NCBI GenBank assembly: GCA_044347345.1
Contig: JBIKUX010000007.1
Coordinates: 32,001 to 96,000 of the forward strand
Direction: 5' to 3'
Length of the DNA stretch: 64,000 bases
DNA from: Bdellovibrionota bacterium
GTDB lineage: Bacteria; Bdellovibrionota_C; UBA2361; JBIKUX01
The position numbers were made by a program. Positions 33,001-36,000 of the stretch are shown here, piece after piece (position 1 is the stretch's first letter; every line of letters starts with the position of its first letter).

Positions 33001-36000
33001 AAGAGATTTTGCTACATTCTTAGCATGCAAGCGCCGTTCATCTGCGAGGTCTGTCATTAATATCCTCCAAGAATATCTAGTTCCGACAATATCTATTTTC
33101 CTTAAACCGTTTTCTTCGATCAGAATAAGTAAATTATACAAGAAAATTACGATGAGCTCAGGGCTGTCGGCAGATTGCCCTACTACACAACATTGAACCA
33201 AAAACAACAAGAATGGCTCCAAAAATTAGAGTAAAGGAGAGATTATGGTGCGAAAGGATGGCAGTAACTAAAGTGGAAAAAAGCGGGATAAACATCGAAA
33301 CAATCGATATGGTTACGATGTTCCCATACCTCATCCCCATATCCCAGAAAAGATATGCAGTCGCTGCTAGAATAGCCCACATTACTAAAAGAGCAATATC
33401 ATTGGGCACAAAGCTTGGTAAAGGTTCTAGGCCAATAGCAATAAATAACAGCGGGAGGGATGTTACCAACATATAAAGCGGTACCGGTGATATTCCCTCT
33501 GGGTTAAGTAACTTTCGCGAAAGGTTACTATAAAGAGCCCAAGCCACTGCATCTATCACAGCTAAGGTGTAGGCAAACATGTTTACCTGAATAAAAGATC
33601 CTGAGGTAATACCGGCGGAAGGATCACTCCATGAAGAAAATTTTACAGCTATTACACCGGCAATGACGCTGACTAAACCAAACGCAAGCCACCAAACATT
33701 TGCCTGAGCGTGGCGGAATAAAACTCCAAAAAGAAGTGTTAGTGACGGCCACAGATAGTTAAGAATTCCTACCACCAAAAGCTCTCCACTATTCTTAGCA
33801 AGCCCTACAGCGAGCCAGCACGCGGTGACATTTAAAAACCAGAAAGTTCCACAAATAAACAGAGCGCGAGTGTTATGTAGGCAGATTCCAAATAAAATCC
33901 CGCGTTTCCAAAAAAAAGTGTAAGGATGATACCAGAGATAGCAAGCTCAAACCCGGCACCATAAAAAACTCCAAATGCAACGGTAATTCGGTTCATTACC
34001 AGGATGGCTAAACTCCATATCAAACAAGCTAAAAACCCGCTTAATGTAGCCTTAATGGGAGTAAACTGAGAGAAGCACAGATTCCGTATCATAAACCGAA
34101 TTTTATGGATGGAATAAATCACATAATCAGTAGATGTAGCTAAATAAGTTCTATCTTTATTAGTGTTATCGATATAGGAACGGATTAAATATTTTTTGGT
34201 ACATTAACTTTTACAGTGTAAAATCTCACTGTATAAATTCTCACTGTATAAATTACTGCGCTAATTAACGTGTTAAAGAGGGCAGCCTTAAAGTATCAAT
34301 TATGGCTCTAAGTAGCGCTATATTATCAGAGTGACCAGTCATACAAGCAGTGACCCTACCCCGTAAAGGACGGCCTAATAAGCTTAGATCACCTATAACA
34401 TCTAATATTTTGTGCCGAACAAATTCATCAGGGAATCGAAGCGCTACATTAATCGGGCCATCCTCGCCAACTAGAACAAAATTATCAAATCGACCACCTT
34501 GAGCGAGACCCTGCCTCTGTAACCCACCAATGTCACGTACCAAACCAAAAGTACGCGCAGGAGCGATGTCAGCTAAATACTGTTCTGGAGAAGAGAGCGT
34601 AAAAGAATATTCTTGAATTCCCAACGGTGGCGGATAGACTAATTTATATGTAACCGAAAAATCCTCCGCTGGCTCAATCTCAATAAATTCACCTCGCTCA
34701 CCAGATGTAGCAACACGAATTGTTTGTGGAATAGCTACTTCCCAAATATCACCATCTTGCTCTTCGACACCCGTCTCACTGATCAAAGAATAGAAATCAA
34801 GTGCTGACCCATCCATGGCCGGTACTTCATCGTTACACTTAATCAGCAGATTTGTTATTCCAAAAGCTCTAAGAGCAGAAAGTAAATGCTCAACAGTGCT
34901 CACATGTACGCCAGAACCCTTAAGAGTAGTGGCAAAGCCTGTAGATTCTACAAAAGAAACTAGTGCTGGTACGGCAGATCCCCCAGCCACTCCAGCAAAA
35001 TGAATACCTGACCCTGAAGGAAGAGGCTCCAAGCTAAGTCCCGTCTTGCGGCCAGTATGTAGCCCTTGCCCGTAAACTAATGCATTTCCAGCCAAAGTGC
35101 GTTGCGATATTTTTCTTCCGGCTGCCACCTTATCCGAAAAAATGAACGATAAAGGATTTATCTTTACAGCTTGACGAAGTATGACCTTTGAGTCTTGTAA
35201 TCTTCTGTTCCCATGCAAGGGCTCTCCTTGCAAGATTGCACTGTTATCATCGACTTCATTTACAGATGCACTTTTATCGTAATCACTTTTATCGTAATCA
35301 TTGCCCGTCCCAGAGACACTAGGCGATGATGTTACTGACTCAGGTTGCTTAGATATAAGCCGCCTAACTGTTTCCACTGTGACTGTCAGATCCAGAGGTT
35401 TCTCCAAAAAGTGAGAGGCTCCCTGCTTTGTAGCCTCTACAGCAGTGGCTATTGTTGCATGACCGCTAATCATAACCACTGGCACTTTAGGGGCAGCAGC
35501 AATTATTTGCCCCAATGCCTCTAATCCATCAATACCCGGAAGCCAGATATCAAGAAATATCAGAGCAGGTCGCTCGTTCTCTAAAAACTTAAACGCTAAT
35601 TCAGCATCATTCACTACTACGGTTTCCAGCCCTTCATCAGCAAGTATTTGCTGTAAAGCCCGACCAATGCTCGGCTCATCGTCAATCACTAATACTCGCC
35701 CTGAGGTCATGAAACTGGATTCCGATTTAATAAGTGGCCTCATATTTTTTTACAACCATATTCTGTAACTATACTAGCCAATAAAAAATTAACACATGAT
35801 CGTCTGATCTCTATCTGGCCCCACGCTGACTATACTAACAGGAACCCCTGCAAGATCGGCAATCAAAGATAAATATCGCCGCGCTGCATCAGGAAGATCA
35901 CTTAACCTTCTGGCTCCTGAGATATCCTCATTCCAACCTTCAGTTTGAATGTACTCCACTCCTACCCTACTGAGCTCATCTGCAAGCATGGGGATATTAT

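Follow-up and report, generated by a model that had tools for sequence, protein, structure and literature searches.

An NtrX-type receiver domain joined to LpxC in a Bdellovibrionota bacterium, with a candidate NtrY-type kinase

The REC-LpxC gene and its protein

Analysis of the window (the 64,000-nucleotide stretch of contig JBIKUX010000007.1 that was studied as a whole) showed a gene in which a response-regulator receiver domain (REC) precedes LpxC, the committed enzyme of lipid A synthesis. The features of the locus are collected in Table 1. The start codon may be either the first ATG or M12, and the receiver domain is unaffected by the choice. The neighbours named in the initial annotation, purA and a 96-aa ORF, were both seen. 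purA ends the conserved run nusA-ylxR-infB-rbfA-nrnA-truB-purA, and the 96-aa ORF, downstream of REC-LpxC, corresponded to the N-terminal part of an EamA/YddG-type transporter whose gene is split. A promoter and terminator scan around the REC-LpxC gene returned fewer sites than in shuffled sequence.

Table 1. Features of the REC-LpxC locus and the candidate kinases; bare positions are window coordinates, not contig coordinates
Feature	Position	Strand	Remarks
REC-LpxC gene	34265..35743	-	492 aa counted from the first ATG
Alternative REC-LpxC start, M12	35710	-	481-aa product, as in the database gene call
REC domain, NtrX-type, residues 17-125	35369..35695	-	D21/D22, S93 and K115 invariant in 120 family members
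Codon of Asp65, predicted phospho-acceptor	35549..35551	-	within the family signature D-I-W-x-P-G-x-D-G
Disordered linker rich in Ser/Glu/Ala/Gly, residues 136-189	35177..35338	-	pLDDT about 30
Ordered conserved pre-LpxC segment, residues 190-213	35105..35176	-	motif [LI]-N-P-[VI]-V-F-x-x-Q-x-L-R-G
LpxC deacetylase domain, residues 214-482	34298..35104	-	catalytic and zinc-binding motifs conserved
purA	35789..37174	-	directly upstream of REC-LpxC; genomic context only
NtrY-type kinase, candidate partner	G000:C33:9712-11973 (outside the window)		NtrY_N-HAMP-PAS-HisKA-HATPase_c
HDOD protein and PAS kinase pair, window's genome	G000:C10:14458-16604		

The initial annotation had described a 492-aa receiver-linker-LpxC protein with both domains intact, and its Pfam and TIGR00325 figures were reproduced. 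Response_reg matched residues 17-125 (4.5e-26; 91.6 bits against a cut-off of 30.2), LpxC matched residues 214-482 (4.6e-78; 262.9 bits against a cut-off of 27), and the TIGR00325 score was 223.4 bits against an equivalog cut-off of 187.25. The claim that this is the sole LpxC was borne out by a single match in the 2.53-Mb genome (95.8% complete). LpxA, LpxB and LpxK are also encoded in this genome, and being the only LpxC beside them gives indirect support to the predicted deacetylase activity. The best 120 of 7,897 database matches all carried PF03331 and PF00072 and were named solely as the deacetylase, as had been noted.

The residues assigned by eye in the initial annotation were upheld by an alignment of 120 family members, which share about 52-57% identity with the window protein, apart from one at 87%. 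Invariant in all 120 are D21, D22, D65, S93 and K115 of the receiver and E285-H286, T398-F399, H444-K445, D448, D452 and H471 of LpxC. The HMMER alignment placed the LpxC motifs in register with the solved Pseudomonas aeruginosa LpxC; the E-H, T-F, H-K-x-x-D-x-x-x-D and G-H residues have the catalytic and zinc-binding roles in LpxC. Its place within the receiver family makes Asp65 the probable phospho-acceptor.

AlphaFold gave two confident domains, with pLDDT mostly above 90 over residues 208-485 and a pTM of 0.72 that is uninformative on contact between receiver and LpxC. The best Foldseek matches were LpxC structures (E 4.7e-30, TM-score to the target 0.80-0.91). The linker is 58 residues long in the window protein, within a range of 18-67 (median 25) for the REC-LpxC family. 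The pre-LpxC motif at residues 190-213 was missing both in ordinary LpxC and in the long REC-AAA+-LpxC forms described below. Conservation of the receiver equalled that of the enzyme domain; both halves of REC-LpxC are intact and strongly constrained, and the enzyme may be controlled by phosphorylation.

Distribution of the fusion and origin of the receiver

All genomes compared were metagenome-assembled and came from uncultured organisms. The fusion, which had been tested directly in five relatives, extended well beyond them. Of the 96 genomes that represent the window's phylum, 95 had an LpxC match; the full-length matches lay in frames of 430-526 aa save for three shorter ones (two at contig ends), and both the REC and LpxC halves were covered by tblastn at 79 of 80 loci. 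The fusion is fixed across essentially the whole phylum, as judged from the 96 genomes examined. It is also present in part of a second phylum, in which REC was in frame in all 18 LpxC frames of 417-489 aa; among four longer frames sampled, two had REC in frame and the other two were REC-AAA+-LpxC. In a phylogenetic tree, 42 fused LpxC domains were split from 18 ordinary ones with support of 100/100.

The window receiver was 44-53% identical to NtrX receivers (101-114 bits), whereas the best other receiver of the window's own genome matched it at 38% and 70.5 bits. Reciprocal best matches linked the window receiver to NtrX receivers encoded in lpxC-ntrY-ntrX clusters, and the REC-LpxC receiver is an orthologue of the NtrX receivers. 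Against the NtrX equivalog model NF051870 the window protein scored 97.2 bits over the receiver only, under the full-length cut-off of 600. It is therefore derived from an NtrX-type regulator yet not a member of that family, while P0122, one of the long forms, scored 348 bits against this model with profile positions 2-449 of 452 covered, close to full length.

The long forms, of 685-795 aa, occurred in the second phylum and had the architecture REC-AAA+-HTH-LpxC. GAFTGA and the Walker B Glu were lost in seven of seven long forms and kept in seven of seven stand-alone NtrX proteins. The gene order lpxC-ntrY-ntrX was found in all eight clusters sampled in this phylum. In six of its genomes ntrY lay directly upstream of the fused gene, which was of the short form in G138, G175 and G207 and of the long form in G135, G205 and G173; the ORFs just upstream of the long-form genes L151 and L153 had no Pfam match. 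The second phylum thus keeps intermediates: lpxC-ntrY-ntrX clusters, decayed NtrX-LpxC fusions and short REC-LpxC genes that follow ntrY. By the proposed course of events, an NtrX-type response regulator would have fused to LpxC and then lost its DNA-binding and AAA+ parts, and the remnant would be an NtrX receiver held on a short flexible linker at the N-terminus of the cell's only LpxC.

Candidate kinase and alternative readings

The initial annotation had named no cognate kinase. This gap was narrowed, in that orthology points to an orphan NtrY-type kinase as the candidate partner, with an HDOD-linked PAS kinase as second candidate; phosphotransfer from NtrY to REC-LpxC itself is a prediction from gene order and orthology. 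All five NtrY-type domains were found in the candidate, with NtrY_N at 37.7 bits against a cut-off of 23.2; among 14 control genomes the NtrY_N model had a match in Caulobacter only. In the window's phylum an NtrY_N kinase was present in 90 of 96 genomes, as a single copy except in G068 (two matches), and six genomes had no NtrY_N match. No NtrX-like gene stood beside ntrY at any of 16 sampled loci of this phylum, nor in the window's genome, and ntrY never adjoined REC-lpxC there, the two being 38-280 kb apart when they shared a contig (compared by eye). The NtrY-type kinase of this phylum is a conserved single-copy orphan. The H-box helix, the receiver alpha-1 helix and the signature motifs were conserved between true NtrY/NtrX pairs and the NtrY and REC-LpxC of the window's genome.

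In the second phylum, 92 of the 121 genomes had NtrY_N irrespective of LpxC fusion, so that its presence or absence does not discriminate there. Pairing by elimination fails in the window's genome because orphans are too many (seven non-hybrid kinases without a receiver within three genes, and 14 orphan receivers), and several full-length NtrC-family regulators of this genome could be alternative partners of NtrY. A third type of kinase, a 515-aa PAS kinase encoded after a PBP_like_2 gene, lay downstream of REC-LpxC on the same strand at four of 80 loci (L046, L051, L055 and L057); it was an orthologue of neither candidate and was set aside as a lineage-specific neighbour.

The account regarded as reasonably probable is that REC-LpxC arose from an NtrX-type fusion and that NtrY phosphorylates Asp65 and thereby controls LpxC post-translationally. 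An NtrX-type switch domain on the sole LpxC makes two-component control directly at the enzyme probable. Under this proposal the orphan NtrY-type membrane kinase would phosphorylate Asp65. The unphosphorylated receiver may hold LpxC in a low-activity state (a committed guess, with a CheB-like or a dimerisation switch), and phosphorylation would relieve the restraint, probably by dimerisation through the alpha4-beta5-alpha5 face, the mode of other receivers of the NtrC family. Any effect on LpxC, together with its sign and mechanism, is put forward here as a proposal. Published analogies for the sign of regulation conflict, as NtrYX lowers alphaproteobacterial lpxC expression while stand-alone NtrX proteins of the second phylum carry activator motifs. 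The initial annotation had overlooked both the NtrX ancestry of the receiver and its tie to published NtrYX-lpxC regulation; what is new here is this origin and the likely kinase, NtrY.

The cognate kinase, or a second input, may instead be the soluble PAS-HisKA-HATPase kinase whose gene follows that of an HDOD protein, although this is considered unlikely. The HDOD gene and the kinase gene were divergent and directly upstream of REC-LpxC at 15 of 80 loci, with no other receiver gene nearby at these 15, and by coordinates the pair lay within about 2-4 kb of REC-LpxC in 28 of 29 genomes of family f8. Adjacency was limited, however, to this one family of 29 genomes and may be a single event. The HDOD-then-kinase order was kept at all 11 loci with enough flank, and 75 of the phylum's 96 genomes each had one copy of a kinase orthologue, but the remaining 21 REC-LpxC genomes, including whole families that keep NtrY, had no match at E<=1e-40, and the second phylum had no orthologue (best match 133 bits). 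In the window's genome and at four other loci the kinase is followed by a stand-alone receiver of its own (129 aa in the window's genome). Its H-box helix is moreover unrelated to that of NtrY, while the fused receiver retains NtrX-type specificity motifs.

Other readings concern what the receiver does. It could set the amount of LpxC by offering a protease or adaptor a handle that depends on phosphorylation, analogous to the Escherichia coli FtsH/LapB route, since regulated proteolysis controls LpxC in enterobacteria according to the abstracts of PMC7730581 and PMC11046580. The linker of REC-LpxC is long and disordered, and a search of the window's genome for the LapB zinc-ribbon gave no match, with a model that also matches Gram-positive control genomes. 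RssB and CpdR, receiver-domain proteins that work with proteases, were among the weaker NCBIfam matches of the window protein, but these matches reflect generic receiver similarity far under the cut-offs, and neighbourhood linked no protease or adaptor gene to REC-LpxC. The present data fit control of stability and control of activity alike, and the proteolytic reading is held to be improbable. Less credible still is a receiver that no longer signals and persists as a structural, dimerisation or localisation remnant independent of phosphorylation. The AAA+ and HTH parts decayed after fusion, which means that regulator parts can lose function, and most genomes have no kinase adjoining REC-LpxC; yet the five residues of phospho-chemistry are invariant across the 120 divergent sequences, receiver and enzyme domain are equally conserved, and NtrY is kept as a single-copy orphan. 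That the fusion is an artefact, with two neighbouring genes run together through an error of assembly or sequencing, has a negligible chance of being right. Every genome is metagenome-assembled, but a single frame held the two halves in 95 of the phylum's 96 genomes, at least 20 of those from the second phylum and thousands of independent database proteins, and the window's genome yielded no stand-alone LpxC.

Significance and relation to known systems

LpxC flux setting is central to outer-membrane biology and to antibiotics aimed at LpxC, and control of LpxC is understood mainly in enterobacteria, through FtsH/LapB/YejM proteolysis. A 2025 review (PMC12444477) gives Pseudomonas, alphaproteobacteria and Neisseria no more than its brief section 10, devoted to other organisms. 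REC-LpxC offers a different solution, a two-component receiver inside the enzyme that is fixed phylum-wide and whose evolutionary intermediates are preserved, and with LpxC it extends the response-regulator repertoire by a new output domain that is an enzyme. No mention of the fusion was found in the literature searched, which included the main texts of two LpxC-regulation reviews of 2025-2026, with censuses and domain-architecture tables outside its scope; the terms receiver, response regulator, fusion and fused did not occur in either review.

As a 'Rosetta stone', the fusion ties NtrY/NtrX, an otherwise poorly understood system, physically to LpxC and thus supports a dedicated link between NtrYX and lipid A synthesis. 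A broader view, offered tentatively and with rather less confidence than the account of REC-LpxC itself, is that NtrYX may be an old dedicated system of lipid A homeostasis and that these lineages may preserve its passage from transcriptional control to control directly at the enzyme. This conversion would begin with the conserved lpxC-ntrY-ntrX cluster and continue with fusion of the whole regulator onto LpxC, after which the AAA+ and HTH parts would decay and be deleted. At its end a membrane kinase would sense an envelope or LPS-related signal and switch the committed enzyme within seconds through Asp65. If true, this conversion would account for the disturbance of alphaproteobacterial lpxC and LPS on loss of NtrYX, and NtrY with REC-LpxC would be the functional counterpart of the enterobacterial YejM-LapB-FtsH circuit in at least two phyla.

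The closest known system is NtrY-NtrX of alphaproteobacteria, which shares with REC-LpxC the NtrX-type receiver, the NtrY kinase architecture and, from passages of PMC7240162 and section 10 of PMC12444477, the process controlled, namely lpxC and the level of LPS. Loss of ntrYX in Rhodobacter sphaeroides raised lpxC mRNA 8.8-fold and also raised LPS (PMC7240162, in part), and the review section gives the same effect for Caulobacter crescentus (PMC12444477, section 10). Alphaproteobacterial NtrX, however, is a DNA-binding regulator whose effect on lpxC is transcriptional and reported to be indirect, whereas the REC-LpxC receiver is covalently attached to the enzyme and lacks a DNA-binding domain; the window's phylum also differs in lacking a separate ntrX gene beside ntrY. 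Passages of PMC3333781 report that lpxC was the single mapped target of the Desulfovibrio vulgaris response regulator DVU2934 (kinase DVU2931), and that in Syntrophobacter fumaroxidans lpxC lies directly upstream of the operon orthologous to that of DVU2934/DVU2931, an order that resembles the lpxC-ntrY-ntrX clusters of the second phylum. DVU2934 is a two-component regulator of a deltaproteobacterial lineage that acts by transcriptional control, and it is likened here to NtrYX by its description in that source, not by sequence.

CheB shares with REC-LpxC the plan of an enzymatic-output response regulator, in which a flexible linker connects a receiver at the N-terminus to a hydrolase at the C-terminus. 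The receiver of CheB restrains the methylesterase until it is phosphorylated, and for REC-LpxC the same logic is proposed. The enzyme fold and pathway of CheB are unrelated to those of LpxC, and CheB is encoded in chemotaxis operons with a dedicated kinase, CheA. The FtsH/LapB/YejM system of E. coli and its relatives likewise acts at the committed lipid A enzyme and post-translationally, as proposed for REC-LpxC, but it works by regulated proteolysis with a membrane adaptor and a C-terminal degron, in contrast to a phospho-receiver at the N-terminus. The other known multi-domain form of LpxC is LpxC-FabZ (NCBIfam NF009667), to which the window protein, at 185 bits against a cut-off of 465, does not belong; the additional domain of LpxC-FabZ is an enzyme of the pathway and lies at the C-terminus, whereas that of REC-LpxC is an N-terminal signalling domain.

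The REC-LpxC protein and its surroundings

The window protein (P0001) comprised an N-terminal receiver (REC) at residues 17-125 (Pfam, 4.5e-26), a linker, and an LpxC domain at residues 214-482 (Pfam, 4.6e-78), and scored 223.4 bits with the NCBIfam lpxC equivalog (cut-off 187.25), the same values as in the initial annotation. Its claim of a single LpxC also held, with only one match in the whole genome (2.53 Mb, 68 contigs, 95.8% complete), which also encoded LpxA (304.7 bits vs 231.05), LpxB, and LpxK. The database gene call started at M12 (481 aa), and the receiver was whole with either start. 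The AlphaFold model (120 sequences as input) had a mean pLDDT of 83.9 and a pTM of 0.72, and the matches on Foldseek were LpxC structures of about 270-300 residues only. The receiver could be coupled to the enzyme by dimerising, by releasing LpxC from inhibition, or by altering its stability.

The 96-aa ORF beside REC-LpxC matched positions 5-75 of an EamA/YddG-type DMT transporter profile, and a 206-aa ORF matched positions 96-291 of the same profile; these consecutive matches make the 96-aa ORF the N-terminal piece of a split transporter gene, the break being due to an assembly error, a stop codon, or a frameshift. The nusA-ylxR-infB-rbfA-nrnA-truB-purA-REC-lpxC run was conserved in many relatives (loci L012-L074). 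Genes for mreB and a 3-hydroxyacyl-CoA dehydrogenase, often downstream of REC-lpxC in relatives, were absent there in the window.

Coordinates of the features (window positions, including 34265..35743, count within the window, G000:C10:32001-96000, without subtracting 32000; G000, genome under study; C10 and C33, its contigs; L, loci cut from sampled genomes)
Feature	Coordinates	Strand	Length	Remarks
REC-LpxC ORF	window 34265..35743	-	492 codons	
Receiver domain	residues 16-131			confident, AlphaFold model
Linker	residues 136-189			disordered, pLDDT about 30, AlphaFold model
Short ordered segment	residues about 190-207			AlphaFold model
LpxC domain	C-terminal to ordered segment			confident, AlphaFold model
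Ser-Phe insertion	P0001 residues 199-200; window 35144-35149			
206-aa ORF	window 33158-33778	-	206 aa	
96-aa ORF	window 33832-34122	-	96 aa	
nusA to REC-lpxC run	window 35789-45170	-		
Hybrid histidine kinase	window 55252-57045	-	597 aa	about 20 kb from REC-LpxC
Orthologous HDOD-kinase pair	C10:14458-16604			about 50 kb from REC-LpxC, outside window
Operon-like run	L092:5459-9292 = G000:C10:14458-18291			HDOD protein, PAS histidine kinase, 129-aa receiver, methyltransferase
Sole NtrY-type kinase	C33:9712-11973		753 aa	NtrY_N-HAMP-PAS-HisKA-HATPase_c
Long forms	L151:668-3055, L152:165-2384, L153:952-3186, L155-L160, L190:3-2054		685-795 aa	

Distribution, constraint, and NtrX-like ancestry

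In the window's phylum (Bdellovibrionota_C), 96 genomes of a single class, all at least 85% complete, were searched, and 95 gave an LpxC match. Full-length matches had frames of 430-526 aa except in three genomes (290 aa in G058, 378 aa in G041, and 328 aa in G034); the G058 and G041 frames began less than 350 bases from a contig end, and the partial matches of G012, G027, and G073 were truncated by contig ends. A second, weak LpxC-like match was seen at G054:C104:910-1719 (41.8 bits, 338-aa frame). In a locus scan with one genome per species, from which the best 80 of 137 confirmed loci were used, tblastn covered both protein halves in 79 loci, and in the remaining one REC-LpxC was truncated by a contig end. 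Submitters had labelled these MAGs as Bdellovibrionota, Oligoflexia, Dadabacteria, Deltaproteobacteria, Proteobacteria, and SAR324.

An alignment of 120 family members (118 at 51-57% identity to the window protein, one at 87%) showed invariant D21, D22, D65, S93, and K115 in the receiver and E285-H286, T398-F399, H444-K445, D448, D452, and H471 in LpxC. The LpxC motifs were in register with the solved P. aeruginosa LpxC in the HMMER alignment. The residues assigned by eye in the initial annotation were borne out; in these families such residues serve phospho-chemistry in the receiver and zinc binding and catalysis in LpxC. The linker was rich in Ser, Glu, Ala, and Gly and measured 18-67 residues in the family (median 25; 58 in the window protein). 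It was followed, just N-terminal of LpxC, by the conserved family motif [LI]-N-P-[VI]-V-F-x-x-Q-x-L-R-G, within which the window protein carried a Ser-Phe insertion relative to 117 of the 120 members.

Loci labelled Deferrimicrobium belonged to a second, different phylum. Most of the 121 genomes sampled from it had an ordinary LpxC (frame about 280-390 aa, 300-376 bits), and a minority had longer LpxC frames (249-295 bits). Of the frames of 417-489 aa, 18 were sampled, and every one had the receiver in frame. Frames of 685-795 aa contained REC, a sigma-54-type AAA+ domain, an AAA lid, and LpxC (6/6 examined, and L190). The long form P0122 matched positions 2-449 of 452 of the NtrX model (348 bits, its best match, below the cut-off of 600) and also exceeded the lpxC equivalog cut-off (228.6 bits). 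Since it matched nearly the entire NtrX model and passed the equivalog, the long form is a complete NtrX-like regulator joined to LpxC.

In the second phylum, 7/7 NtrX-like proteins encoded as separate genes retained Walker A, G[AS]FTGA, and the Walker B "DE". By contrast, 7/7 long fused forms had lost both the Walker B glutamate and the GAFTGA loop, and 6/7 of them retained an HTH-like stretch. This decay after the fusion points to an order in which the long form preceded the short REC-LpxC. Among receiver-type NCBIfam profiles the window protein matched NtrX and NtrC best, and among solved structures it matched NtrX-like receivers best. Its receiver was 44-53% identical to second-phylum NtrX receivers (101-114 bits) vs 38% (70.5 bits) for the best other receiver of its own genome, and an NtrX receiver searched in that genome matched REC-LpxC best (108 bits; next 79.7).

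In an unrooted maximum-likelihood tree of the LpxC domain, in which rows for the window's phylum were database hits of assumed phylum, 42 fused sequences were split from 18 ordinary ones (support 100/100; 100% of 200 bootstrap trees). This tree fits a single origin of the fusion and is no proof of it. Genome G134 (L146 and L128) had two LpxC genes, an ordinary one adjoining ntrY and a fused REC-LpxC whose branch in the tree was very long. The REC-LpxC of L125 (G167), from the second-phylum sample, nested among the hits taken as the window's phylum, its LpxC domain being 58% identical to the window's; this placement could reflect horizontal transfer or an effect of group labelling.

Candidate kinases for the receiver

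The main candidate for phosphorylating Asp65 was the NtrY-type kinase. In the window's phylum, NtrY_N was found in 90/96 genomes (87 over the cut-off), in single copy except for G068 with two matches, and no NtrX-like gene occurred among the ORFs flanking ntrY at 16/16 sampled loci of different families. The window's genome had ruvA, ruvB, and a 197-aa ORF upstream of its kinase gene and aconitase-family genes downstream, with no ntrX after it. The H-box helix of this kinase (HEIKNPLTP region) was nearly identical to that of second-phylum NtrYs, and the receiver alpha-1 helix and signature motifs were common to NtrX, the long forms, and REC-LpxC and absent from the other receivers compared in the window's genome. 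In the second phylum, ntrY lay directly upstream of the fused gene in G138 (4-base overlap), G175, and G207 (short form) and in G135, G205, and G173 (long form), with no such adjacency in the other 21 of 27 fused genomes sampled. Against the NtrY pairing, ntrY and REC-lpxC were adjacent nowhere in the window's phylum, and the window's genome contained 7 non-hybrid orphan kinases, 14 orphan receivers, and several full-length NtrC-family regulators.

An HDOD-linked PAS-HisKA-HATPase kinase is a possible second input to REC-LpxC. When neighbour genes of the best 80 of 137 loci were compared by ORF clustering, 15 loci had this kinase and its HDOD protein immediately upstream of REC-LpxC in divergent orientation, and by coordinates the pair lay beside REC-LpxC in 28/29 genomes of one family (f8). 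The kinase was present in 75/96 genomes of the window's phylum (E<=1e-40), including an orthologue in the window's genome (276 bits vs about 105 for the next kinase), and was missing from families retaining NtrY; it had no orthologue in the second phylum, and its H-box was unrelated to NtrY's. The HDOD-then-kinase order was retained in 11/11 loci with enough flank, and a small receiver followed in 5/12 loci; that of the window's genome, a stand-alone protein of 129 aa, was 28% identical to the fused receiver.

In four second-phylum loci (L046, L051, L055, and L057), the genes after REC-LpxC on its strand encoded a PBP_like_2 (PstS-like) protein and then a 515-aa PAS histidine kinase, which is a third, lineage-specific kinase neighbour. 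The window also held a hybrid histidine kinase (HisKA and C-terminal receiver), for which no link to REC-LpxC was seen.

NtrYX, lpxC, and known systems

The order lpxC, ntrY, ntrX on one strand was found in 8/8 sampled second-phylum clusters (L179-L186), and about 22 of the 121 genomes, with coordinates compared by eye, had an NtrY_N match within 4 kb of the ordinary LpxC on the same contig. These clusters suggest that lpxC and NtrYX have a dedicated link in bacteria other than alphaproteobacteria. PMC7240162 reports that R. sphaeroides without ntrYX had lpxC mRNA up 8.8-fold and LPS up, with no NtrX site at lpxC, and section 10 of PMC12444477 names R. sphaeroides and C. crescentus as species in which NtrYX reduces the transcription of lpxC; the published connection is a functional link. 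In PMC3333781, lpxC is the single target of the D. vulgaris regulator DVU2934 and, in S. fumaroxidans, lies directly upstream of the operon orthologous to that of DVU2934.

In line with the initial annotation, full-text searches of the literature turned up no receiver-LpxC or ntrX-lpxC fusion, and response-regulator censuses or domain-architecture tables may list the architecture uncommented. Term searches of two LpxC-regulation reviews (PMC12444477, 2025; PMC13333357, 2026) gave no occurrence of the words receiver, response regulator, fusion, or fused. The evolutionary intermediates of REC-LpxC are unusually clear, and the idea is open to direct test. REC-LpxC belongs with the known receiver-enzyme response regulators and with the known control of LpxC.
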